This document shows, piece after piece, positions 7,485-46,300 of a DNA stretch of 64,000 nt. The DNA comes from Selaginella moellendorffii (Eukaryota > Plantae > Lycopodiophyta). Each line of letters opens with the position of its first letter. Position 1 is the first letter of the stretch. A model generated the notes under the pieces. That model was not told where the DNA came from. It worked only from the letters and a program-made list of their open reading frames with translations, and ran no database searches. Location of the stretch: the NCBI RefSeq assembly GCF_000143415.4, contig NW_003314287.1, positions 270,203 to 334,202 of the forward strand, read 5' to 3'. Made by a program: the position numbers and the translations under genes.

Positions 7485-8160
7485 GGGGTTAGAAGACTGT
7501 ATCAATGGCAGGTACGATAACTGTTTGTGATTTTAGTGTCTACTTACAAGAAACTACAGGTTGATTGTCTACGCCTTGATGGAGTTTTGGATGGTAAAAG
7601 TCTTGTTTGCTGTGCCTCAACAAGGTGCTTGAGATTTCTTATTTAGTTTTCTTTTATGGTAATCCTTAAAACTTTTGACAGTCCAGGCGAGAGCAGAATT
7701 TTGATGTTAAAAAGAGTGCTAGTGACAGGGAAAATGGCAATGCTGGTTTTACCATATGTCATGTTGTGTTCTGAGAAGGTATGCTTGGTTTTGTTTTGTC
7801 AAAACGTCAACTGGTTTTTACTTTGCTAGACAGAGCATTTTACTGGAACATGTTGTGTCCGTGGATATTTTGGGACTCACGGGAGTACTCCAGATACTTC
7901 ACTTGCAGTTCGTACCATCAAAAGAGAACTCACTCATCAATAAGCTGGTAGAGGACGGGCGGCTGTCCGAACTAGCAGTCGTAGTTATAGATGAGCTTCA
8001 TATGGTATGTATATTGACATCCCAATATCTTTCTTATAGCAGTCTGGTGCAGGTTGGAGATAAAGAGAGGTTGTTTGCTAGAACTAAGCTACGGTATGTG
8101 GCCGGTAAAGGTGGCTATGAAAGCAGGGTATTGCAACCTTTTTATTCAAGTCTTACAAGG
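7485..8160 (+). pseudogene. TEB: Second partial POLQ/TEBICHI helicase copy (DEAH-box region), related to ~2181-2830
   Basis: Near-identical nucleotide sequence, including introns, to 2181-2830. Encodes [28 protein letters not shown] and [11 protein letters not shown]. Confidence 0.9.
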
Positions 8161-8649: not shown

Positions 8650-9663
8650 TTACCACTCATCCTCATCTCCGAAGCGTTTCCAGCCCAGAATGGACCAAGC
8701 CATCTCAAACTCCGAACTATTGCGAGGTAAGCTCGACGTGATCACCTTCACGAGCTTCTTCAAGGTGGCGTACGACATTGTGTCGCAGCTCATAGATCCT
8801 GTGCGTGGAAACCGATAGTAGAACACGACGGCGCTCTTGAAATCAGTCACCAGCTGCAAAAACGGGAGCTTGGACGACCTCGCCCACAGGTAGAATTCCA
8901 ACTCGCATCTGTTCAATCCCTGCCGGCTCAGCTCACTGACGACCTCGATCCCAAGAACAGGGTCGCTTCCATGCGCAAGAACGGCCGAGCTCTTGCTCCT
9001 CACCTCCACGTCCAAGTTGATCGCACGGAAAACCTCCACTTTGCTGTCGATCTCCTCCGGATCCAGCCACCGGTATGACGACTGTGGCAAAAGTTGAGAG
9101 ATCTCGCGCACAATCTCGTGGGCTTGAGCTCGAGGGAGGTGACGATTGATGTAGAGCTCTTCTTCTTCTTGCGTCATCAAGCCCTGGTGATCGTGCTCCT
9201 TGTCGATGGCGACGACGTTTGGATCGTTCACGTCCAAATGGTAGCGAAAGACGAGCATGAATTTGTGGCACAGCAGCGAGTCCGCGTCGATCCTACCTCT
9301 GCAAATCCCGGACAGCTTCGCCATCCAAGCCGGCTCCTTCTCGTGCTTGATGCCTTGGATGATCGCCGCATTTTGCCGCGTCTTGGCGTCGGGGAGCGAG
9401 GCGATGGCGTCGAAATGGATACAGCCGAGCTCCTCGATCAGCTCGTCCCAAGTGAGGGACGAGAGGCCCGTCCTGTAGTTGAGAGGGAGAGGATGGAAAA
9501 CCTCTTCGCGTTGAGACGAAGGCGAGAGCCGGAGGGAGAGCTCCGCGGGATCTAAGCCGCCTAAACACCGGGCGATGGCGAGCAGATCCAGCTTACCATT
9601 GCAAAGAGGAATACGAACACCCAAGCCTTCCTCGCCGTCCCGCCGAAACCAGCGCAGGTCCAT
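8650..9663 (-). CDS. Intronless hypothetical protein (~337 aa); possible small header domain plus PD-(D/E)xK/Crinkler-REase-like C-terminal fold
   Basis: Long uninterrupted GC-rich ORF with ATG at 9663 and an AAACCCTA motif just upstream. A degenerate paralog lies at 660-1133. The fold assignment is pattern-based inference only. Confidence 0.6.
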   Translation of the reverse strand: MDLRWFRRDGEEGLGVRIPLCNGKLDLLAIARCLGGLDPAELSLRLSPSSQREEVFHPLPLNYRTGLSSLTWDELIEELGCIHFDAIASLPDAKTRQNAAIIQGIKHEKEPAWMAKLSGICRGRIDADSLLCHKFMLVFRYHLDVNDPNVVAIDKEHDHQGLMTQEEEELYINRHLPRAQAHEIVREISQLLPQSSYRWLDPEEIDSKVEVFRAINLDVEVRSKSSAVLAHGSDPVLGIEVVSELSRQGLNRCELEFYLWARSSKLPFLQLVTDFKSAVVFYYRFPRTGSMSCDTMSYATLKKLVKVITSSLPRNSSEFEMAWSILGWKRFGDEDEW

Positions 9664-11212: not shown

Positions 11213-13020
11213 TGTAAACGACTAATTTTTCCATTCTACTTTAGTCACTAAACCACACCTCTGACCATTTGGAGGAGTCTCTCTCACAACCTCCATAAGT
11301 CTTATTTCGGACTTGGGCTTGCTAGCCTCGAGAATGGCATCCCCACCACTCAACCTTTGCACATGGTCCAAGTGCTCCACGTGTCCGATCCCATGACCGA
11401 CACCCCAAAGTACCATTGACATAGCCGTCTATTACGCTAAGGCCATGCCCCTTTACCTTGGTCACACCGGTGGTCTAACACCACCTGCATCATAGTCCCA
11501 TCTCTCAAGGATTGGGCCATCTGTCCATGAGTGATCATTCTAGATCCACTCCTTAGTATCCTTAGGATGCCCACAAATATGGGGAATAGCCTTCCCCAAT
11601 ATCCCTTTAACAGTCCCCACCAAGATCCTTTTCTGTCCATGGCCGTGATCACCTACACTGCCACTGGATCAAGGCCCACAGGCCCGACTACTAAGTCCCA
11701 CTGTCCTCTAGGACTTCCTTACCACATGACCGTGTCATTGGTCACCACACCAGAGGATCATTGCTCTTCCTTTCCATAGTTTGGGACTTTGGGACAGCAT
11801 TTCGGAACACTGTAGCTCTAAGCGGGCCTCTTGGGTACTCTCCCCACCTTCCGTCTTTGGGTGCTCTAGCCATGGGCTTAGAGCGAGGTTCCGTTGAGCC
11901 ACGCCAGGTATCCAAGTAGGTAGTGCCACCCGCACTTGGATTGGGAGCATCGACCATTCGATCTCCCGGGGGAACTAGAGCCAGCTCTTGAACACTTCCA
12001 CTTATTGGTCCGTATTCACTCTAGTCTTGGACTTCCCAGTGGGCAGCTCATCACCCAACACTGGGTATAGCCTTTTTGGGCCAAACTGGCCTTTCCTGGC
12101 CAAACTAGCTCCATTGCAGTCCTCCCCCTTACTATACTTTTGGAGCTCACCAAACCCCCCAGGGTCTGGGAGACGAACGCTTTGGGCTTTCACCCTCTCA
12201 GACTCGAACTCAGACTCGGACTCGGATTCAGACTCAGACTCAGACTCAGACTCGGACTCGGGCTCGGGCTTGGTCTCGGCCTTGGCCTCGGTCTCGGTCT
12301 CGGTCCCGGTCCCAGTCTCGGTCTCGGTCTCGGTCTCGGTCTCAGTCTTGGTCTTGGTCTCGGTCTCAGTCCTGGTCTCAATCTCGACCTCGGACTCCAT
12401 CTCGGGTCCTTCTTGGACTCCATCTTGGACTCCATCTCGGACTCCGTCTCGGTCCATCTCGGACTCCATCTCGGGTCCATCTCGGACTCCGTCTTGGTCC
12501 ATCTTGGACTCCATCTCGGGTCCATCTCGGACTTCATCTTGGGTCCATCTCGGACTCCATCTCGGGTCCATCTCGAACTCCATCTCGGGTCCAGCTCGGA
12601 CTCCATCTCGGACTCCACCTCGGGTCCACCTCAGACTCCATCTCGGACTCCATCTCGGGTCCATCTCGGACTCCATCTTAGACTCCATCTCGGACTCCAT
12701 CTCGGGTACATCTCGGACTCCATCTCAGACTCCACCTTGGGTCCACCTTGGACTCCATCTCGAACTCCATCTCGGGTCCATCTCGGACACTTCCACGTGT
12801 CATGTGTTAGTCCTTTTTGGGTCCCTTTTTGGAGCCTTGTTTATTGGTTGCCTTGTGCTCGCTCCTCGAGCACTTTGTTGGGAGTTCCACTCCCGCTCTC
12901 GACCTTCCAAGTCGGAGCTTTTAGTCCAAACGTGTTATGCTCGTTTGGCTTTCGCCTTGGCCACTACCACGTGGCACCCTTCTGGCTCCACTTTGGGGCC
13001 TAGGGATTTTGTGTCTCACA
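11213..13020. mobile_element. Solo LTR (~1808 bp) nested in gag
   Basis: TGTAAAC...CTCACA termini with flanks GAAGG / AAAGG (5-bp TSD, one mismatch). Removing it rejoins the gag frame. Shares the motif ACTATACTTTTGGA...GGGAGACG.ACGCTTTGGGCTTTCACCC and a hexamer array with 25245-26832. Confidence 0.8.
12197..12790. repeat. Compound hexamer/12-mer tandem array (ACTCRG, TCTCGG, GGACTCCATCTC) inside the solo LTR
   Basis: Directly visible periodicity. It generates the low-complexity ORFs in several frames. Confidence 0.9.
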
Positions 13021-23208: not shown

Positions 23209-24841
23209 CATGTATACCCAATATCTTTGAGTATGCATTAAAGAGGTTAGCTATATATGATTAACACTCAATCGCAACTAAAGTGAAGACCATGACATAA
23301 ACTTATATTGGTATACAACCTCTTAATAAACAAAGCTATAGTACAAGTGCTAACATCTCAACCTCAAACAATTAAGTTGGATATCACCATCCTTAACTAC
23401 GGCACAAGGCAACTAAAACCAAATCAAAATCAGTGAGAGCTCACTACTCTCATAGAGTCTAATAAAATGAAAAATGCAATTTGCCACCAAATACAATGCT
23501 ATAAAGGAAAGGTACAAGGGTCACTTTTCTAAAAAAGTGCAATAGCCATTTTTCTACACCAACTTGAAACATTATTCAACTCAATTATCTTAGCCCCAAA
23601 AGTTAGCATCCCTTTTGGGTCGCATCATACAAACTATTTACTAATGTCTAAGCTAACTAAAATCAACTTTAACCTTTTCACTAGTTTATATTGGCTTATG
23701 AAAATAGAATGGTTTTTGAGCAAAATGATAAATAGATCAACCATTGAAAAAGTTTAAGAAAAATTGTGGAAAATTTTTCCATTTTAGAGAAAGAATAACT
23801 TTTAGTCTAGAAATATAAATTCTCATAACTCAACCAACTTCCTCCTACCAACAACTTTATATAGGTTCACCCTAACATAAATTTTCATGACCCAACAGTA
23901 TGTCTAATCATTGAACATCTTACCCATATTTTTTATATCTAATACTGACATCTGTAAAATGCAAATAAATACCCAAAACTTGATCATAAAGATTACATCT
24001 TCAGATATCCATATTGCATTAACACTCTTTTTCAATCACTCTCAAGATCTAATGTAAAACCAAAACATTAATAAAAAAAATTGACATGGAAAATCAAGTT
24101 CTAAAGAAAATTCCTTATCACTCAATATAACAATGCCACTTCCATTAGCACAAGTGCTAACAAAGTTAATGCTTTAACTACATACCTTTTCCATCCAACA
24201 ACCTACTTTATGTGCTAACAGATTTATCAACAAGCTATAGCAAATAAATGCCATAGCCTTTTCCATCACTAAATTCCCAAGGAACCAAGGTATCAACTCA
24301 AACTTAATATAATAAATCATTATTGAGAATTAAGTCAAAACTACTTCAATGTTATTACTTGCAAGTAGATTAGTTTTACTATCAACCACTTTGGGGTTAA
24401 TTATTATTTAATTAAGCAACTTCGTAAACACATTACTCACAATCATATGGATATGATATAGAAATCATAATAACTTAATCATCAATCGAGCAACACCATG
24501 AGCAATACCCATGTCACTACTACAAGGTTTATATGAGTATCAAATGCTAACCCAATTTAACAAAATACAACATAAATGTCATACCCCACCAATATAGATT
24601 TATAACATCCAATATTACTAAATTTGTTTATAACATAGATAGGCTCATACCACACTTTTTCCGACTAAACTCAAAACTAATTTAACATCAAGTTATTCAA
24701 GGAACAATAGCAAAGTTCCCTAGAAAAGCATTGAGCATTGTAACTAGAGTTATCAATAAGAAGCCTAGACAAAATGGTTTAGTGCTTCATTGTTATCCAT
24801 TCCATAATTCACCACTTGTAAAACCATTATAACCAACATGC

Positions 24842-25038
24842 TGTAAACACTCATGAGTTTGGACTTCCCGGGAGGTCACCCAGCCCAGTACTATTCAAAC
24901 CCAAGAACGTTTAACCCCAAATATCCCAAGACCCTTAACCGATTGGAAAAGGGGGTGCACTCTTGTTCATGGGCCCTTTCCCTCTATATTTGAACCCCTA
25001 TGGATCGTCTCTCAAGTCGTTCTCTTTGGTTGCTTACA
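24842..25038 (-). repeat. 3' LTR (197 bp) with 5S rRNA-derived domain at ~24861-24916
   Basis: Minus strand GTTAAACGTTCTTGGGTTTGAATAGTACTGGGCTGGGTGACCTCCCGGGAAGTCC aligns to the 3' half of plant 5S rRNA (A-box, IE, C-box). Confidence 0.92.
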
Positions 25039-25244
25039 ATCCACCACGCTTCCCTGCAAGTTCACGCCCTCGTGAACGGAAGCTGAGAGCCGCAGCTCTC
25101 CCGAGAGCCCCGCTCTCTTGACACCCTACCCCTCGGGTCGAGCCCAGTGGGAGCAAACTGGACCAGCCAGATGTCAATCAACATATGGTGTGATTCCCTT
25201 AGCCAACCAACAGAGTCGGACCTGAGACCGCTCCGATACCAAAT

Positions 25245-26832
25245 TGTAAGCCACAAATTTTTCTTTTCCAATTTGCCAGCTTACCTCGTCTATCCGACCA
25301 ACTCTGCCTTGGCTTGTGCTAAGTTCCCTCGCCAAGGTTCTAGCCTATGGTACCAGCTCCTACTTGGTCCTACTTGGTTTCAGCTACTCACTGCACGAGC
25401 AACGGAGTGTTAGCCATCCATCTACGGATTCCCAAATCTCTCCCAATCCCCCTCCCCGGGTTAGACTAGACTTAAGGTTTGGCTACACTCCCCGCAGGCA
25501 CAAGCAGCCAAGCACACCAAGCCTCCAGATTCCTAACACCTCTTGGTACCACAAGACTTGATCATGGAACCCTCTAAATCCCAAGCCTTGGGTGCAGCAC
25601 TTGCTTCGGGACCTCGGGGCGAAACACCGTGGCCTAACGGCTCGGTATGGGTACCTCTACCCCCGCACTTCCATCCCGAAGGGAAGGCCCAAGCCCCCGG
25701 AAGGGCGAGGACCAATGAGCCACAAGGTACTCAAGTGGGGCACCACTCCACCTGAGCCGGGAGCACCGCAGTCGGTTTCCCTTTCGGGAGTGGGAGCTGC
25801 TCTTGAGCACTTCCTTGGATGGCCCCTCTGGCACCAGCCAAGTCCATGCTCACTCCCACCCAAGGCCCCTCGGTCCCAGTCTCAACCTCAAGTCGGTTTG
25901 GAAGCCCAACTAGAGAGTCCCTTCAAAACTAGTTCCTAGACCTCACTATCCCTACTATACTTTTGGAAGCCCTTGCAGCCCCCCCCCCCCCCCGGGAGAC
26001 GCACGCTTTGGGCTTTCACCCCTTGACCCGTATTAGTATTTGGACTTAGTCTCTGGCTCGATCTCGGACCCGATTTCGGATCCGACTTCGGATTTGGTCT
26101 CGGACTCGATTTCGGACTCGATCTCGGACCCGATCTCGGACCCGACCTCGGACTCGACCTCGGACTCGGTCTCGGACCCGATTTCGGATCTCGGACTCCG
26201 TCTCGAACTCGGTCTCGAACTCGGACTCAAACTCGGTCCCCGAGTCGGTCTCGGACTCGATTCCGGACTCTATCTCGAACTCGGTCCTAGAGTCGGTCTT
26301 GGACTCGATCCTCGACTTGGTCCCATCCGATGAACTCTTTGTCATTTCGGTCAAGCTTTTGGGGATCCTTTAGCCTACGACATCTCGAGGAGTCGGTTCC
26401 TTACAACTCCACCACCCATAGAAGAAGTTTGATGCCCACATCGAACGTCTCGTTTTATCCTACGACTTGTTGACCATGTCTCCGGGGGCATCCCCCCACT
26501 TAGCGGTGTGCCTAAGTTAGCCTCCCCGGCCAAGAGCCCATGACAACGGAATATAGGTGTCCCTATACTCCTCACCTCACCACGCCCTAGTATGGGGTCG
26601 GGACTTGAACCCAGCCTTGCTTTACTAGGGGGTTGGGACTCGAACCCAACCTCCATAGAATACGTCTACGGATTCGACATCCCCGCGGGGAGTCGGGCGT
26701 AATGCCCTACGCCTGGTCGACCTATCCAACCCATGCTAATTAGCTTACCTTTGGCGCGCCTTCGGGTCCCAACATATGCCACTTGCTCAACTTTGCAAAT
26801 TGATATTTTTAATTGAATTTTGCATAAGTACA
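25245..26832 (-). repeat. Internal long LTR (~1588 bp) of the chromovirus moiety, with a hexamer array at ~26040-26330
   Basis: TGTA...TACA termini. It directly follows the chromodomain and is directly followed by a PBS. Shares motif order with the solo LTR at 11213-13020. No clear PPT at its 5' side. Confidence 0.65.
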
Positions 26833-27190
26833 TAGAGTTCTGCCTTGCAGAAATTCCTCCACTAGATCTCGCGCGTTCACTAGGTTCTCCTCCGGTTCCC
26901 ATGTTGCTTCGCAGTGTGGAAATCCTTTCCACTTCACATGGAACTCTCTCACCTCGCGTCCTTGTCGCTTGCTCTTGCGTGCATTGAGGATGGCCTCGAC
27001 TTCGTATTCCTCTTCCCCTTGGATAACCTCAGGTAAAGGTCTCACTTGGTCCTTGCGAAGCGGATCCTCAAAGTACGGCTTGAGTAAATTCACGTGGAAC
27101 ACTGGGTGCATCTTCCCCATCTCTCGAGGAAGTCGGAGTCGGTAAGCCACTTTACCGATTCGTGCCTCAATCTCGTAAGGCCCTGCGAAC

Positions 27191-27242
27191 CTGCTTAAGG
27201 AACTCAAGATCAATTCATTTACAGGAATACATGCATCTTTAC
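27191..27242 (-). other. Putative spliceosomal intron 2 in integrase (52 nt)
   Basis: CAA AG|GTAAAG...TTAAGCAG|G TTC GCA GGG CCT TAC. Removal restores KLTQRFAGPY (GPY/F motif). Confidence 0.8.
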
Positions 27243-27660
27243 CTTTGGGTCAACTTTCGGCTGATCCCACTTGCTAGTCTGAGGTTCTTGGTGTTCAGCC
27301 ACACCTTCTCCCCAGCTTGGAACTCTACATCCCGACGCTTCTGGTTCGCGTATTTGGTTTGCCTTTGTTGAGCCCGTTCCAAGGAATCCCTCACTAGATT
27401 CCAAATGCTAAGTCTTTCCGCCGTGAATGCCTCCACTGCGGGCAACTCTCCATGATACTCGGCCACGCCGAGTTCCACAGGACCTTCAATAGCTCGCCCA
27501 TTGATGACTTCCCATGGACTCACCCCGATACTCGAATGTGGTGAGTTGTTATAACACATTTCCGCAAGTCCCAAATGACTTACCCAATCGGTCTGGTCTC
27601 CCGAGACATAGCATCGCAAATAATCCTCCAGCTGCCTATTCACCCTTTCCGTTTGTCCGT

Positions 27661-27706
27661 CTGTCAAGAAGTGTTAGTGCCAACAACTTGACTCAATACC
27701 CCATAC
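27661..27706 (-). other. Putative spliceosomal intron 1 in integrase (46 nt)
   Basis: CAG ACA G|GTATGG...CACTAAC...TGACAG|AC GGA CAA, with a CTAAC branch point. Removal restores YHPQTDGQTERVN. Confidence 0.8.
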
Positions 27707-29982
27707 CTGTCTGTGGGTGATAGGCTGTGCTGAATTTCAACTTGGTGCGATACTGTTCCAGGAGAGTCCTCCAGAACCTACTGGTGAAGATCTTATCTCG
27801 ATCTGAGATGATCTCTTCTGGTCTTCCCCGCACTCGAACCACTTGTTCGAAGAACAGCTTTGCCACACCTTCCGCATCCACCTCCGTTGTGGTGGGTATG
27901 AAATGTGCCATTTTCGAAAATCGGTCCACCACCACGAATATCGCATCAAACCCCTTGCTTGGGGGGAGTCCCGTGATGAAGTCTATCGTAAGACATTTCC
28001 ACGGGCGATCTGGAATTGGGATGCTTTGCAACAAGCCCCCACTAGCCTTAGTCACGGCTTTTACCTGCTGACATGTTGGATATGTCTTTACATAGTCTTG
28101 GACGTCCTTAGCCATATCTGGCCAATGGTACTTCCTTTTGAGTAAGCCCATCGTCTTGGGCACTCCACCGTGTCCCGCAAGAGGTCCATCATGACACTCT
28201 TCTAAGGCCACCTTCCTTAGTTCCCCTTCTGGAACATACACCCTCGTTTGCTTGTAATAAATGAGTCCGTTACGTTCCGCATAGCCCGTTTTCTCTTCCG
28301 TTGGCAGCTCACCTCTCTGGTGAGCTTCCCGCGCCTCTAGATTCCTCAGCAACACTTCCTATGCTAGACCATCATTCTCATATGCTGTCCGCACATCGTC
28401 CCAGAAGGTTGCTGTTGCGCTGGATATTGCCAACCTCAAGCTCGCTTTTCGACTTAGCGCATCCGCCACGATGTTGCTCTTCCCAGGCTTGTACAGAATT
28501 TCGCAATCAAACTCGGCCAAGGCATTGGCCCACCGACCTTGTTTCCCTCTTAGGTCGGGCTGTGACAAGAAGTGTTTCGTTGCCACATTGTCCGTGTAAA
28601 CCTTGAAGTGTCTCCCAAGGTAGTGTCGCCACTCCTTGAGCGCCTTGACCACCGCAAACAATTCCTTCTCGTGGGCAGGCCACTTCCGTTGAGCCTTGTC
28701 CAGCTTCTTCGAGAAGAACGCTACCGGATGGTTGTCTTGCTTCAAAACTGCGCCCAATGCAAAGTCCGAAGCATCCGTTTCTACCTCAAAGTCCTTACCA
28801 AAGTCTGGTAATGCCAATACGGGAGCTTTCCTCAACTTCCCTTTTAGGTGGACGAATGCCGCCTCGCATTCCGCTGACCACACCATCTTCCCTTTTCCTG
28901 TTTGGTCCGTTAAGGGCAGGGCTACTCTCGAATAGTGTCTGATAAACTTTCGATAGTAGTTGCATAGCCCCAGGAATGCCCTCAACTCGTGTACATTGGA
29001 TGGTCGCTCCCATTCCTAGATCGCTTGGACCTTCTCCGGGTCCACCTTGAGCCCGTCCTGGCCCACCACATGCCCGAGAAACTTTACCTCTTGTTGAGCA
29101 AAGTCACATTTGCTCTCTTTAGCATACAGCTTGTGTTCCCTTAGTTTCTCAAACACCTTCGCCAAGTGTTCGGCATGCTCCTCTAGCGTCTCGCTATAGA
29201 TCAGGATGTCATCGATATAGACGACCACGAAGTGATCCAGATAGGGTACAAAGATGTGGTTCATTAGCGCCGAAAACGTTGCCGGCGCATTACATAGCCC
29301 GAAGGGCATCACCAGAAACTCAAAGCTCCCAGACCTCGTTCGACAGGTTGTCTTCTCGACATCTTCCTCGGCTACCCTGATCTAGTAGTATCCTGACCTT
29401 AGGTCAATCCTCGAGAAGTATTTTGCCTTTCCCAACCTATCGAACAGGTCTTCAATCCTTGGCAAAGGGTACTTGTTCTTCTTTGTATACTTGTTGAGCA
29501 ACCGGTAGTCTATGCACATGCGCATAGATCCATTTTTCTTTTTCACAAATAACACCGGCGCCCCATACGGCGACTTGCTCAACCTAACATACCCTTTGCC
29601 CACCAACTCCTCTAGTTGGCACTTGAGCTCCTTGAGTTCTTTTTCGTTCAAACGATAAGGGGGACGAACCACTGCCTCAGCACCCTCGACCAGTTCAATC
29701 TTATGTTCTATCGGTCGTGCTGGGGGTAGCCCTGCCGGTAGCTCCTCCGGCATGGTATCCTGGAATTGGTCCAACACCCGCTGGATCACTAAAGGTACTT
29801 CTTCCATTCCTGTCTTTTTGTCACTCTTCACCGAGAGTAAGCACAAAAAGGCTGCCTTAGTTCCTTTAGTGAGTTGTCCTCTCGTGGACACCAGGTTTAA
29901 GCAGGAATCTTTGGCCTTGCCATCTCCCAGCAATTCGCCTCTATCCTTCGCTAGAATTGAGGAAGAGGCTCCGATACCAAAT

Positions 29983-30179
29983 TGTAAACACTCATGAGTT
30001 TGGACTTCCCGGGAGGTCACCCAGCCCAGTACTATTCAAACCCAAGGACGCTTAACCCCAAATATCCCAAGACCCTTAACCGATTGGAAAAAGGGGTGCA
30101 CTGTTATTCATGGGCCCTTTCCCTCTATATTTGAACCCCTATGGATCGTCTCTCAAGTCGTTCTCTTTGGTTGCTTACA
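29983..30179 (-). repeat. 5' LTR (197 bp) with 5S rRNA-derived domain at ~30002-30057
   Basis: Minus strand GTTAAGCGTCCTTGGGTTTGAATAGTACTGGGCTGGGTGACCTCCCGGGAAGTCC, followed by the PBS. Confidence 0.92.
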
Positions 30180-33053
30180 CATGCATCAAGGTAGGGACTC
30201 TTGATTGCATGATGTGAACATAAGCAATAAATTCATACTTCGTTACTAAATCATCTTTCAAAGAAAAAAAGATGATTTGACCAAACCTCAAACTTACATT
30301 CACATTGTTTTCAGTTCAATCTAAGAAAAGTTTATGAGAGAGCATAGGCAATGACTATTTGAACCAATAGACTAATCCCTATAGTCTTGATTGATCCACT
30401 TATAATTATTATTATGAATTTCCATTGCAATGGATTCCAAGCTTTCATTTTCTACATCTTTCAACTGTGTAAAAATATTTTTTGCAAAACCCTTTTCGTA
30501 TTGGAAATCAATTTTTGCAAACTATAGTCTTTACTCCACCAAACCCTACACCTATTTAGGACTTTCATACATGCTTAGAAAGGATCCACTAGTGCCATGT
30601 TAAATAGCTATGGACTAGTCTATTTGCCACTATTAGCAAACTTAGGGAAGGTTTACTAAATATGGAATGACGCTAGATTGTGAATTTAGGCATAGAACAA
30701 ACACTATTGTGTTCAGGACAATATTTACATTCTGTAGATATGCCAAATTATCAAATCTAAACACTTTCCAAATAGCAATTAAGAATTAATATAAGATGCA
30801 TAATAGCAAAGGGTTTGGCAAACATGGTAAACTATCATCTAGCAAATATTGATGAACCAAACTCAATATCACTGGGTTCCCAATATTAACAAGTTCAAGT
30901 CAACAATATAAATTTCTCATCACTATGTCAAATATGCTTGACTAAATAACAACTTAAGATTTCTTTCCTTAGTGCCCTTTCAGTTTAAGTGCACATTTGA
31001 TGACTAATTTCTCAACCTTAGGCAAAGACTGATAAAGGGTCTAACAATACCAACCTTCAGTCGTCGTGGCAGTAAGGAAAGAATATCTTAAAGAACTAGC
31101 TGATAGGTAATTTTCAATACACATAATCACATTTACAACATGAACAAATACAGTAGTGAAGCAAGAATGAATGATATAAATCATGAAGTGAAGATGAGCA
31201 TAATAAGTTTGAATAAAACATTCAGCCCTAATGTAGTGAAGTCAAATGAATGCAATGATAGAGTGAGGTTGGTGAAATGAGAATGAATGCAATGTGTCTG
31301 AATAGAACTAATGCTTCAAAACATTTTTTTTCCTTTAAGGAGGGGTAAAAAAGATATGAAAGACAAATTGAATGAGTCTGATTTTCTATATGCAATGTTA
31401 GACAAAGATAAAGAAGTAAATTCTACTTACAGTTATGAGTTTGAGTTAATAGTGATTTCGGAGAATTATCGGCAGGCAAACTTATAATACAAAGTATATC
31501 ATTTATTGCAATGGCATTTCATGGACTATAGTAATTCCCAAAATCCTTTACTTTGATTCAAAATTATAACTTGAAAGTTAGTTTAAACATTTGGCAGTTG
31601 TATATGAAGTGGTTTATTAAGATTTTGTAGTCAATTGATATATATGTCATGGCTTTGGGTTTTATTTTAATCACGGTTATCAATAGCTTTGTTAGTGGTT
31701 TTATAAGATCTTTAAATTTTTGTGGTAGTTTATAATTTCCTAACAAAAGCTTTAAATTTTCAATTGATTTATAGTTATTATTTCTTCATCCTCCAAAGGG
31801 GAGGATGGTGTAAAATTTGTAAATACATATATTACCTTAGCTAGGTAATACACTAATTATAGTACTATAATATATAAACCATCCATTTGGGATTAAATTT
31901 AATCTATCCATTATTGTATATAAGTAGAGGTCTAAACCTAAATTGATATACTTATTCCTATATCTTTATAAGTGGAAATATACCATTATATTGTTATATA
32001 TCTTCTTATAACATTCAATGAATTTATTAATTAATACAAACAATATAATCACCCTTAAAAAATTAAATTTATTACTTTTATAATATTTTTATTTTAGAAC
32101 TTTAAGAGTGGAAGAAATTTAAGACATTTTGAATGCATATTATTAAAATTAACCATTCATTTAATTATTGATGAATGTTTGCATTCTAAATTAAAGACAA
32201 TGTAACATATTTTACTGTAATATTTCCGATTGACTTCTTGAGGATAGAAACTTATTGTTCCTGAAAGACTTTTGGTCTTCTACTCTTCTGTGAGTTCCTC
32301 AATTTGATAAATATATTCGATATATATATTTAATAAATATATATATAAATAAATGTTATTGCTTATAAATGATGAACCACATCATAATTATTAAATTTAT
32401 TTTCTCTTAATAAATTTAACTAAATAGTTGCGAAGCAGAGCCTTCACCCGCTCCACCTCCTCCTCCTCCTCTCTCCTCCTCTTCTGATCCGCCATGAATT
32501 ATAAAAACTTATTCTTAAATTGAGATTTTTAAATGGTTTTCAACTGAAATTCTAAATGTTCACTTGTTGTAAATAAAAAATAGTGAAAATACTCTATGCA
32601 TCTTGTGGTGTTTTAGATTCTGGGAGACCAAGGCAACATACATCAGGCTGCTGTGAAACCTAAACCCTCAACAGCTAAGTTGACAGATAATATCCAACTT
32701 GTCCATTTCTTTTCTGGTCTTCTCCTGAACTTTACAAAGAAATACCTTTATTGGAGCCTTCCCATGCGGTTGTTTCCTTGCAGTAGATCCCTTCCCACAC
32801 AGCCAATGTGGATCTTCATCCCAGCAAAGAGCAAAGTGATCCAAGGTAAGAAAACCCGTCACTAGTAACTAGAGTATCTTTTACCCAAACGTCCCTGATA
32901 TCTAAGAGAATGGATGAAAGCGAATGGAAGAAATGGATCTTGGATACACAAGGAGATCTTGGTTAATAGAGACACGCAACAAACATAAATACTAAGACCA
33001 TTTGCATTTCTGCTTTGAGCGCTTTAAACAAAATGATAAGATTCTTTTACTTG

Positions 33054-40799: not shown

Positions 40800-41700
40800 C
40801 TACAAAAGAGTGGACTGCCATGGATTTACTGTCCAATTGTCTCTATGGTTGTGGCAAGAGCTATTTGCTAGGTATGTATACTTTCAATTCTTTCTTCATG
40901 TTGACAAAATTATCTTTTGGATTGATAAGGTTATTCATGTGTTGTTGTAAGTGCTCATGGAGTGACCACCCAGGAGTTCTCCACAGCAGTGACGAAAGCA
41001 GTGGATACAATCTGTGCTAAAAGCTTATGAGGCATCAGCGTTTCAAGGTAATGAAGAACCTGAAGAAACAGAAAAATAGTGGGTAAAAAACTCAAAAACA
41101 AACAGTAAGGGTAGTTATTGTGAAGTCAAAAGTTGGCCTTTGCTCCAAGGCATCTCCATGCAGTTTTCTCAATATCTCTTTGATACGAAGAACACCGAGA
41201 GTAATATGTTGACAAGAAACTTACTAAGAAAGTGAACATAAAGCTTTCAAGAACTAGGTAATGTATGGAGAAACTGCATAGCGAACTCCTGCAGTTTCAA
41301 TCTCGAAGAATGCCACCTTACAAAGTCTTCTAGCACAGATACAATCTGAAAGTAAAAGAGAATATTACTTTGTAAACGAGTGTAAGATCTACCTTGGAAT
41401 TTTAAATGTCTTTCAAGATTAGATCCCAAACAGTTGTCGGAGATATCTTGCAAGATTTGGTTCTTTTTTTCTAGCTCTGGCTGGATAGAAGAGGTAATTA
41501 GTTTTTCTCCACAGAAATGAGCTTGGCTCCAGCATCGTGGTTTTCAAACGAAGACAAAGAAAAAAGAATTTCTAGTTGACAAACAGACATACCAGCAAAG
41601 CATTCTGCCACTCACAAGCCACTCGACAAATCTACATGCACACAGCGAAATCATCAGAAGTTCTACAAAAGTTTTCGATCTAACCTCAGCTCGTTTCAAA
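40800..41700 (-). pseudogene. Shredded partial duplicate of the neighbouring Rab3GAP gene
   Basis: 40975-41150 matches 44088-44285; 41305-41340 matches ~44420 (VLEDFVRWHS); 41385-41520 matches 45425-45560; 41600-41660 matches 46815-46895. Collinear, with large deletions. Confidence 0.85.
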
Positions 41701-42685
41701 TAATATGACATATTTCGTGCCCTACGTGGCAGACTGTCGTTTCGCTCGCGCGAGGAACTCGAGAGGATCGGCCGCAGCCGCGGGTTGAGAAAGATCCGTT
41801 GGCCGGTACTGTCTAAGTATCGTAACGCCCAGCCAACCTCTTGGAGCGAGCCCAGCAGAGCTCATATAGGAATTGCCAGGAAGTGGGAAAGCTTGCGCTG
41901 GGCGATGGTTCTGGTTTCCTTACATTTACCAAGGGTGGTAGTGTTGATACAACTTCTTCTGCATAGATTGCTTGCGGCCAGTGTGCCATTCCTGCTGGTG
42001 ACAAAATCACAAACAAAATCAAGAATGCTTTGAGTATGAAGGAAATTTGTTTTAAAAAAATCAGATTATTATAGGATTACTAAAGTAAGTCTAAGTTTTA
42101 AAATACATTCTAGGATATTCCTTCATTTAATTTCTCTAATTTATTTTTTGGTTTTGCTTAAGCAAATCTGTATGGTAGTGAATATACCTGAAATATGCTT
42201 AGATACTCTAGGATATTCTACAATCTAACGGTTATTAATCATTTAGATTAATTTTATATTTATAATTTATAAATATGTTTATAATTTATAAACTTTCCTA
42301 AACACTTCTTAGCATATTCTAGTTTATTCTACCATAATCTTATGTTTATAAATTATAAACTTTCATTTGATCAATTAAATTAATAAATACTACTAAGCAA
42401 ACCAAGCGTATTATTAATTTCATTAAAAATCATTAGTTTAATTTTGACCAATATTGAATTATTGACCCTTGACTGTAGCTCTAACGGTGCCGCAAAATCA
42501 AAGGAAGATTCAAGCTTTGAAAGTGAACCGAAACTTCCCTCTTCTTGTCTCAGGTCAGGTTTGAAACACTATAAAAACCTCATGCTTTGATATGATCAAT
42601 AAACCCAAGGGAATTTGTAGCAAGCTCCACTCCTAGTTTTCTGCAGTCACTTGTAAGTTTTCTGCTAGGCTTCTCCTGCTCTGAA

Positions 42686-42925
42686 ATGGCGATATCAAGG
42701 ATGGTTTATGTGGTTGTGATCTTGGCCGTGCTCCTCCTGTTTCTTCATGGCACTGCTGCTGCCAGGCCCTTCCAGTCTGTGAGCACAGTGGATTCAAAAC
42801 CACCAAGCAGAGGAAAACATTCTCCAGCCATTTCATCAGGATCACCAGGAATTATCAATAGTAATGGAAAAGCAGGAAGAACACCACCAGCAACAAAGGA
42901 AAGAAAACCAGCATATAACAACTAA
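42686..42925 (+). CDS. Small secreted peptide precursor (79 aa)
   Basis: Signal peptide MAISRMVYVVVILAVLLLFLHGTAAA|RP, a Ser/Pro/Gly-rich Cys-free body, and TATAAAA at ~42570. Confidence 0.7.
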   Translation: MAISRMVYVVVILAVLLLFLHGTAAARPFQSVSTVDSKPPSRGKHSPAISSGSPGIINSNGKAGRTPPATKERKPAYNN

Positions 42926-43347
42926 ATGCATCTCAAAGGCCATGCTAAATCATAATTTTGAATCTAACATTTTTATCACTAGCTACTGTACAATTGCCAA
43001 AAGCAGAGAAACTTCTTCTCCTGCAATGCAAACAGCAATGGCTTTCATGAGGCAGCTTCAAGGCCCTTGAAGAAACTATAGAGAAATCAGCAGAATTTTG
43101 TCATGGTTATTTGTTGACGTAAATGTGAATCCACATTTTATCACCGCCCGCGTAGAACTTTACCATCCTCTAATTCACCGACCATTGACCATAGACATTG
43201 TTATAATTGACCACGAGCATTGACCACAACTGTTGAAAGCAAGTTTTCCTGTGACACTACCAACACATTGTATGTGCTCTATAACATGTAGATGGGTATT
43301 TCTTCGTTTTTATCTTAGTACGATAGTATTCACAAGCTTCGTAAGTG

Positions 43348-46300
43348 TTAGTCGTGGGAAGTGGAGGACAGGGCGATTTGCAAATCGTCCGCTGTTCCAC
43401 ACGCAAACATTCGATGAGAGCAGCCTCGTTTTGGGGCCGAGGAGCTGGAGCTGGAGCTCCTCTTGGTCTTGTTCTTGCTGCCACCGCCACCGCCGCCGCC
43501 ATAGACAGCTTCCTTCTCGTAGCAAGTCAAGAGCACGTCCCTGTAGAGGGGCTCGTGCCCGTTTAAGAAGTTGCCCATTCGCAAGCTCTCCTCCCACGTC
43601 TCGCTCACGCTCTGCGAGCTAAACAGCTTTTCCGCTACCATCTCTCGGTCCCTGTATGAGAGCAAGGGCGCTGATGATGATGCTACTCCCTGGCAAAGGA
43701 AAACAATGGTCAGCTGAGAACTTTGACAAGAACATAGCTTCGGATTTGCGTTTGTTTGTCTACCTCTGTGCAGCGAAAGATCGAACTCAGCAGCGACTCC
43801 GACGCCTCTGGTAGCTTTTGACGCAACGACGCAGCTTCCGCAACCGCATCCTCGAGTTTCTCGAACGCAGCACACAGTTGCTTTAAGTCTCGCTCCCATT
43901 CGCTCATGTGGTGCTGCGCGTCCTTGTCTAGAAAACAAAACAGAGAACACTGAGCTGTCTAGTGGAAACATTCATAAGAAGACTCTACCTTGGATGGAAA
44001 GGCTTCCGAGAGGTGCTAAGGCCGCTGCCATTATCGCGTAGAACTCGTCAAAACGTTCAACCACAGGCTGGAGTTTGCATCCGGGAGTTCTCCACAGCAC
44101 GTCCGTGGCAGCGACGAAAGCAGTGGATACAATCTGTGCTAAAAGCTGATGAGGCTTCAGCGTTTCAAGGTAATGAAGAACCTGAAGAAACAGAAAAACT
44201 GTGGGTAAAAAGCTCAAAAGCGAACGGTAAGATAGTTACCTTCTCTCCCTCCCTTGTGAAGTCAAAAATTGGCCTTTGCTCCGAGGCAGGAGTTGGCTCT
44301 GCAGTTTCCCATATTTGCGCCCATACATTACCCGGTTCTCCCATTCGTCTCGAAAGCTTTCCTTTTGCTTTCTTAGTCTTTGAATCCGAGCCGTCGTCTT
44401 CAATCCAATCTCGAGGAGAGTGCCACCTTACAAAGTCTTCTAGCACAGCACCTGGATTTGCCGCCTTAAAAGCAGCCATATCTGATCATTCACAATACAA
44501 TGAGAATGCAGTCTGCAACAAAAAAGAGCAAGCACACCTGAAGCTAGAATATCACTTTGTAAGCGAATTCGGGCAGCTTTACCCTGTGTGAGTTCCAACC
44601 TGAGCACTTGAAACACTAAAACTTCATTATACTTACACTAGGAGAGTTCTCTAGAGCTACCAGTGCGTGTTCCCGTTCCTCTAACATGTCCTCAGTCATA
44701 ATTGGCGGAGTCTAGCAGCAGAAAATAACATAAGTCCCTGGAAAACAACGTGTGTGGCACTTACCTGGGTCATAGGCACATGGAGAGGCTTATTCGAGCT
44801 TGACAAAACTGAATTGCCAAACGGTCCCGCTGAGCCTTTCCTGTGTTCGTTATTAAAGAACAAGTCTATATTCATGTTGTCATCTACGCTGGATAATTTG
44901 GTCTTTTTTGAGCTCGAGGATAGCTCTGCATCACTACTTCCCGTCTCCTACAATGCAATTGCGTTAGAGAGACATTGTTCAAGGATGTGCTGACACAGCC
45001 TCACCTTTCTAGCTGATGTTTCTCCCTTAGCGTCATCAGAAGCTTTTCTTAGTTTGATACACGTTGCGAGCTAAAATGTTAAGGACAAGATTAACACTTG
45101 GAAGAAAAAAGTTCATGAGCTTACCATCTGCAGCTTCTGTTGGCTTAAGCAAGTCGAGAAATCCGGAGTTTCGTCAGCTAAAGTTCTTGGCAACAGTTGC
45201 CGCTCCTCCCAACACCAATTCACTTCTCGTAAAAACTCAATCCAGAGTTGAGCAATAGCTCGGATGTTGCAATCGCCAAACCATAACACATGTAGACAAA
45301 AACGACCAAACAGCGAATCCGGTGGTGCTGCTTTGATCATACGAGCACTTTCATTGGCGTATCCAAAAGCCTTAGGCGCTGGTATAAGACCAAAAAAGTT
45401 TTTCAGAAAGTCGCTTTCAAACTGTAAGATCTACCTTGGAAAAATATGTCTTTCAAAATTCGATCTAGAACAGTAGTCGGAGGTACCTTGCAAGACTGTA
45501 CATTCTTTTCTAGCTCAGGCTTAGTCACTGGATAGAGGGTAATTAGCTTTTTCTCCATACAGCTGGTAGAAAAAAACGAGCTTACCATTTACAAAATCTT
45601 CCATAAATTCCGTTTCTTTCGAGAAAACAAATGCCTTAACTAGTCGTCTCAATCTCCCAGTGAAACCAGATGCTTCATCTCCATTCTCGTGTCTGTAACG
45701 TGGATTTCAGAGAAGTCAACTCGTTTGTAAGTCTCACGTACCGAGTAAGAAGCGGTCTTAGCATCCAGCGGTCTGCATCGAATGTAGAGGCATTCTCAAA
45801 CTCCGCCATCTCGAAAGAGTTCGACACATACCTGCTTCTCCAAACAGCAATCAGCTCGAAACCTGCATAGAAGACACCAAATTATAGCGACAGCGATGAC
45901 GGAAATTTTCATGCCTTTTACAGGATCTTCCACGGAGTGCCACTCGGCCCACTGAAAGTTATCATCCCACAGGGATGTGTCGACCATTTCACTGTCTTGG
46001 CCGTCTCCTTGTTCTCCTGCGAGTGGTCCGTGTTCGAATAAATAATGCGAAGTTGCATATGTTAGTCTCATGGTGAATCCCAGCCCCGGTACGTCTTCTA
46101 CAGCACCCTTCAATAATCAACGCTACAGAAGATGAAAAACTTGAATTGAAACACTAAACATGCGCAAAAGCAAGCATACCAGTTTGGACATGAACAAGTC
46201 GTACAGTCCCTCCAGGTGCATTAGCTTTATTGGTACCTGTCTCCCAATCCTGTCAGCTTCAAATTTTATCGACGAAAGGCCTTCCAAGCTTTCGATTCCC

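Follow-up and report, generated by a model that had tools for sequence, protein, structure and literature searches.

Intron-like inserts in the integrase of a high-copy Ty3/gypsy chromovirus family of Selaginella moellendorffii and their probable role in dividing genome from message

Two short GT-AG inserts interrupt the integrase of a Ty3/gypsy chromovirus copy in the window (the whole 64,000-nt stretch of DNA analysed here). They are present in diverged genomic copies and are removed exactly in RNA-type contigs, and the frame restored by their removal carries a codon-position bias. We consider it probable that these inserts are spliceosomal-type introns common to a high-copy chromovirus family, which likely packages unspliced RNA; its full integrase-chromodomain protein would then be made from spliced mRNA.

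Anatomy of the element and its two inserts

A Pfam scan of six pieces recovered pol on the minus strand, with the order RT-RNase H-integrase and a C-terminal chromodomain that define a Ty3/gypsy chromovirus (Table 1). This copy is a dead fragment: no gag or protease domain was found in it with Pfam, pol exon 1 contains three in-frame TAG codons (29382, 29016 and 28359), and the 5′ end of that exon is deleted, with other copies diverging at ~29920 (a loose end at 29920 in 23 DNA contigs). Compared with an intact element, which has gag, protease and two LTRs of its own, it retains a single own LTR, whose 5′ edge was inferred from the polypurine tract and the TG, no second copy being present. This LTR contains a 15-G tract at 25979-25993. 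No second integrase copy was found within the 64-kb window. Another stretch with 12-bp tandem repeats lies at ~11300-12850 on the minus strand, is 68-70% like the gypsy LTR and has no pol nearby; it is probably a solo LTR of a related family.

Table 1. Coordinates of the chromovirus copy, its introns and the surrounding Cassandra-type element in the window
Feature	Position	Strand	Description	Basis
Pol exon 1	27707..29975	-	RT, RNase H, integrase zinc finger and most of the core	Pfam RVT_1, RT_RNaseH, Integrase_H2C2, rve
Intron A	27661..27706	-	46 nt, GT-AG, phase 1	Exact joint 27660/27707 in X15, X19; retained in X16, X18
Exon 2	27243..27660	-	418 nt; end of integrase core with catalytic Glu, and linker; 106-codon ATG ORF (318 nt)	
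Intron B	27191..27242	-	52 nt, GT-AG, phase 2	Exact joint in X15, X16, X19
Exon 3	26809..27190	-	SH3_Tf2-1 (E 2.8e-16) and Chromo (E 2.7e-16) to stop; 103-codon (309 nt) ATG ORF	Pfam
Polypurine-rich tract	26406..26417	-	Precedes the gypsy element's own LTR	
Gypsy element's own LTR	25245..26405	-	~1.16 kb (about 1161 nt), TG...CA, 12-bp tandem repeats	
Left Cassandra-type LTR	29983..30179	-	197 nt, 5S rRNA-like stretch	Rfam 5S_rRNA E 0.0093, below gathering score
Primer-binding site	29968..29979	-	After left Cassandra LTR; presumably tRNA-Met type	
Second primer-binding site and short non-coding Cassandra internal region	25039..25241	-		
Second Cassandra-type LTR	24842..25038	-	197 nt	Rfam 5S_rRNA E 0.0011, below gathering score

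The sequence-only reading had described an integrase frame broken at exactly two places by GT...AG inserts of 46 and 52 nt. Both inserts lie where it had placed them, and the count of two holds for the integrase; it does not hold for pol, given the three TAG codons upstream. On the minus strand, intron A reads GTATGG...TTGACAG (27706-27661) and intron B GTAAAG...TAAGCAG (27242-27191). Each has a length of 3n+1, in agreement with the claim that neither is a multiple of three, and each carries an in-frame stop (TGA at 27693-27695 in A and TAA at 27239-27241 in B). Intron A splits the Asp codon of HPQT-D-GQTE, four codons upstream of the catalytic Glu, and intron B falls in the GPY/F (SH3_Tf2-1) region, so placed that the flanks YHPQT / GQTERVN around A and KLTQR / FAGPY around B occupy three different frames. 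Retention of A leads to a stop four codons on, ahead of the catalytic Glu of the D,D(35)E triad, as expected from the proposal that unspliced RNA gives no working integrase. The CTAAC branch-point-like motif reported for the 46-nt insert was located at 27677-27673; intron B contains no branch-point match of the CTAAC kind.

The inserts resemble host introns, as had been proposed from their sizes. Eleven introns were called in the neighbouring host gene, which we take to be phytoene-desaturase-like, and ten of them measure 48-62 nt and one 88 nt; the GC content of A (0.43) and B (0.35) compares with 0.29-0.48 in these host introns. The same gene has a GC-AG intron at 33380-33333 (minus strand). 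Candidate GT..AG pairs are common near each break (8 at A and 18 at B), so that the sequence alone is suggestive and it is the exact joints in RNA-type contigs that settle the question. GACAG is duplicated at A, as previously noted, and allows a 5-nt slide, and AGGT is duplicated at B with a 4-nt slide. Neither intron folds better than its shuffles (z -0.29 and 0.73; with flanks -1.94 and -1.41), and thus no structured packaging signal is evident in them.

The element likely belongs to SM1-Galahad, an assignment set by anatomy and not by sequence. This S. moellendorffii family was described with hundreds of copies and no intact single ORF (Novikov et al., 2012; PMC3350952, section 2.1). Its LTR exceeds 1 kb, has TG..CA ends and carries a poly-G tract of 11-25; its ORF1 of 1295 residues ends in core integrase, and its downstream ORFs measure 316 bp and, for the final one, which carries the chromodomain, 309 bp (PMC3350952). 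The LTR analysed here (about 1161 nt, 15 G), the two short ORFs of 318 and 309 nt, the end of ORF1 in core integrase and the high copy number all match that description. The published account presents three separate ORFs, whereas here the breaks between them appear as spliced introns; in the main text of PMC3350952, "intron" and "splic" have 0 occurrences. Together, SM1-Galahad ORF1 and exons 2-3 amount to about 1557 residues, against 1577 in SM2-Galahad, an intron-free single-ORF sister in the same genome (PMC3350952). Splicing likely explains the published "missing chromodomain" and "no intact copy" of the family.

Retention in genomic DNA and removal in RNA-type contigs

Eight of 24 listed runs were aligned to the window: one of three presumed-DNA runs (X1), four presumed-RNA contig sets and three raw RNA runs. 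In X1, 96,608 contigs match the element, with a summed depth near 1e6. Depth is flat and shows no dip in the intron bins (985,085 over B; 921,402 and 990,203 over A; 925,773-1,166,216 in neighbouring bins). By contrast, the eight long single contigs listed for this run have a depth of 108-159, which marks the element as high-copy and is not a copy count. The whole of intron A is contained in a contig ~86% identical to the window, and two further contigs extend over most of B and show no large gap, so that the proposed comparison of copies found the inserts in diverged ones. The sole pol indel among 12 listed of 14 in X1 falls inside intron A, the introns being 3% of pol. Skips of A or B are not among the 15 listed of 294 X1 joints (lowest listed depth 284; some joints uncounted), and the remaining joints could still conceal a small number of DNA copies without introns.

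The sequence-only reading had left room for inserts unique to this copy, with the 46-nt insert as a repair or transposon footprint. That both inserts are such scars, private to this dead copy, is very improbable: they are common to diverged DNA copies and, by ORF pattern, to the published three-ORF consensus, and RNA-type contigs show their exact removal. In favour of scars are the flanking GACAG and AGGT duplications and the deleted, stop-bearing state of the copy; the duplications may explain the introns' origin and not their present nature.

Transcript evidence comes from four contig sets of four studies (X15, X16, X18 and X19; 9 records) whose run type is presumed RNA; the contigs are unitigs and may be mosaics. 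The spliced junctions that had been proposed as a check are present as exact joints in contigs of three of these four runs for intron B and of two for intron A, with ends that read CT..AC on the plus strand. In X15 a single 2500-nt contig, the only one of that run aligned to the element, lacks both introns, and in X19 all contigs covering the sites are spliced. The X16 contig is half-spliced, with B removed and A read through, and the X18 contigs run through A and enter B from both sides. Since the presumed-RNA contigs are only ~96-99% identical to the window, they derive from other copies. Integrase depth in the raw RNA runs X22-X24 (~12% read) is at most 1.2 per strand, with almost no pol cover and no joint listed there. 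The half-spliced X16 contig (depth 59) continues 5′ into unrelated sequence beyond window position 27740, and transcription of this fragment of the family likely starts there from an adjacent promoter. In their GT..AG ends, their host-like size and composition, their presence in genomic DNA and absence from homologous coding sequence, and their exact removal in these presumed transcripts, A and B have the properties of U2-type introns.

At the listed exon-2 sites, the A-spliced X15 sequence differs from the A-keeping X18 at 4 positions and from the A-spliced X19 at 13, and the B-spliced X16 differs from the B-keeping window at 3. By these counts the sequences without an intron do not group by lineage, as expected from splicing of RNA and not from a subfamily that lacks introns. 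In the spliced frame, 16 of the 24 differing sites of exons 2-3 fall at third codon positions (p 0.0009), as do 15 of 16 in exon 1 and, when two sequences that both carry intron A are compared, 10 of 15 (p 0.0085); this test covers 40 listed of 48 sites and counts positions, not synonymous changes. The coding sequence behind the premature stop is thus likely under selection in intron-bearing lineages, and selection there means that splicing is needed.

These results bear on the idea that intron-free master copies in DNA produce the "spliced" contigs, the insert-bearing majority being defective passengers moved in trans. We hold this to be improbable. The run types are presumed, 15 of 294 DNA joints are listed, and the intron-free sister SM2-Galahad resides in the same genome (PMC3350952), all of which leave it some room. 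Against it, the insert-free contigs are 96-99% like the window and nearer to insert-bearing sequences than to each other, a half-spliced form exists in X16, the third-position bias lies downstream of a premature stop in insert-bearing sequences, and the ends are exact GT-AG at both sites.

Origin of the introns and a possible division of RNA

Most relatives of the integrase are uninterrupted at the two sites. The 12-residue HP..ER.N motif is unbroken in 76 of 81 homologous proteins, and the 10-residue spacing of K-L-x-x-R-F-x-G-P-F is the commonest length class (36 of 64 matching homologues), the same that KLTQR/FAGPY shows without its insert. The window's break coincides exactly with the homologue position, and unbroken homologues have the same spacing, in keeping with the claim that removal of the inserts restores both motifs with no residue gained or lost. 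Among 83 related loci (~43-53% identity), site A is unbroken in 81 and site B in 63; at B, 18 others have no match and 2 match partially through small frameshifts, and inspection of both partial relatives revealed no intron. Loci unscored at the sites are mostly too short or too decayed. The proposed look at homologues elsewhere yielded 83 related loci in which no intron was seen at either site.

Among protein matches from a collection without the family's own short ORFs, none exceeded 58% identity and none was a further split form; the searches covered exon 2 (81 matches among longer proteins and 1 among similar lengths), the N-part of the integrase (best 120 of 2387) and a HMMER search (best 150 of 11,403). 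A search of metagenome contigs for the exact junction pattern gave no match. With related loci unbroken at A (81/83) and B (63/83), the simplest reading is that the introns were gained in this lineage. Intron-generating elements insert with a co-opted splice site, and the GACAG and AGGT duplications would fit a gain of this kind; each intron may have begun as a small insertion into an AG|GT-like site.

Copying through RNA is classically recognised by the loss of introns, and LTR elements normally lose theirs. For the retention seen here, the reading that we lean towards is that a lineage that gained two ordinary, host-sized introns in its integrase spread to hundreds of copies by actively barring spliced RNA from its particles, splicing acting as a switch between genome and integrase mRNA, and unspliced RNA giving a catalytically dead integrase stub without a chromodomain. 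The unspliced RNA would serve as the packaged, reverse-transcribed genome and would encode a Gag-Pol that ends four codons into intron A, lacking the catalytic Glu, SH3 and chromodomain; its products would be Gag, RT and an integrase stub. The spliced mRNA would yield about 1557 residues, including a working integrase-chromodomain. We infer a packaging bias that largely excludes spliced RNA from particles, because otherwise intron-free, fully coding progeny would take over, and separate RNA pools as in BARE would be the simplest route to such exclusion. With the spliced mRNA as the sole source of full integrase and kept out of packaging, the splice rate would limit integrase relative to Gag and RT.

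The introns might instead be real and have no sorting or regulatory role, tolerated as spliceable and persisting as most transcripts, packaged ones included, stay unspliced. Several observations suit such passive retention: intron A is kept in contigs of two of the four runs and the X18 contigs reach into B, neither intron has a special structure, and the pyrimidine tract of intron A is weak (T 0.33), with the CTAAC of that intron close to the acceptor. We nevertheless judge it unlikely, as the doubly spliced X15 contig and the spliced covering contigs of X19 indicate that splicing can dominate the steady-state pool. Packaging of that pool predicts that intron-free autonomous copies pile up, whereas copies ~14% diverged still bear introns and no DNA skip occurs among the best-supported X1 joints.

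The use of splicing proposed here has partial parallels in known systems. Ogre elements (Ty3/gypsy, Tat clade; pea and Medicago) contain an intron in gag-pol, and splicing of some transcripts yields the full polyprotein; the single intron of this non-chromovirus, about 274 bp long, separates Gag-PR from RT (PMC6317226, PMC4408406, PMC12786077). The present family is similar in that the intron is kept in DNA and splicing of a subset of transcripts allows a whole polyprotein. It differs in that two host-sized introns cut the integrase, one of them beside the active site, while RT and RNase H are still encoded unspliced; its chromodomain and the position of its introns also separate it from Ogre as these sources portray it.

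In a review from 2025, the plant cases of splicing are given as Ogre, EVD and BARE1 (PMC12786077). In the Ty1/copia elements EVD and BARE1, splicing yields Gag only and full Pol comes from unspliced RNA (PMC5580714); in BARE, capped and polyadenylated RNA is translated and a separate uncapped pool is packaged (PMC3735527). As described there, splicing balances Gag against Pol, unspliced RNA is the genome and BARE has separate pools, which recalls the arrangement proposed here, whereas the intron of those elements is coding and the introns here are non-coding, with splicing needed for full integrase. Foamy viruses likewise make their Pol enzymes from spliced mRNA and keep an unspliced genome (PMC7828637); in that account the subgenomic splice removes gag, and there is no non-coding intron in the integrase. 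Penelope-like elements are not LTR elements, and have neither a DDE integrase nor particle-based copying. They share with this family the retention of spliceosomal introns (PMC4209133).

The accessible text of PMC2864245, PMC7175516, PMC2678813, PMC10886601 and PMC4717578 holds no case of introns inside integrase, and no earlier report of an LTR element with integrase introns was found in the literature searched, Repbase and most subscription journals lying outside it. Two host-type introns in integrase, kept family-wide, thus appear unreported, whereas the logic of splicing to make Pol is known; the family would apply the logic of Ogre at a different position. To succeed while holding on to two introns that are spliced efficiently, a family would have to separate the RNA that serves as genome from the RNA that serves as message. 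The introns mark each RNA or cDNA molecule with a natural barcode that reveals its pool, so that the packaging choice of plant LTR elements becomes readable by sequencing alone. The intron gain in this family is also one that can be dated and set against a sister family without introns, and ORF-based searches will misclass active elements of this type as dead.

The surrounding Cassandra element and other features of the window

The gypsy copy sits inside a Cassandra element, recognised as such by its short 5S-like LTRs, its short non-coding interior and a 5-bp target duplication that flanks the whole unit. The two 197-nt LTRs differ at 5 of 197 nt (2.5%). Their 5S match and the separate 1.16-kb LTR rule out these repeats as the LTRs of the gypsy element. 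In the region 24837-30184 (minus strand), a Cassandra element with 5S sequence and a deleted gypsy element thus form a chimera, present as one copy. Both Cassandra/gypsy junctions share a 20-nt motif comprising an LTR end and primer site, which suggests that the chimera may have formed by a template switch or by crossover with a one-LTR circle.

PMC10886601 states that Cassandra has no known autonomous partner; this one chimeric copy provides a lead and hints that the gypsy family shares particles with Cassandra. The plain Cassandra form, with a joint at 25244/29991 that skips the gypsy part, occurs in DNA contigs and also in raw RNA, with 36 reads from three runs; its presence in RNA indicates that Cassandra is transcribed. 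Four X1 DNA contigs join both flanks at 24835/30179, as at an empty site, and reflect either a polymorphic insertion or a flank that is itself a repeat.

Elsewhere in the window, two duplications occur with host-like gene pieces, one direct (2181-2752 / 7485-8126, about 5.3 kb apart) and one inverted (734-1065 / 8860-9288, about 8 kb apart). The interval 40986-44288 contains repeat pairs 3.1 kb apart together with short inverted repeats, and is perhaps another mobile element.
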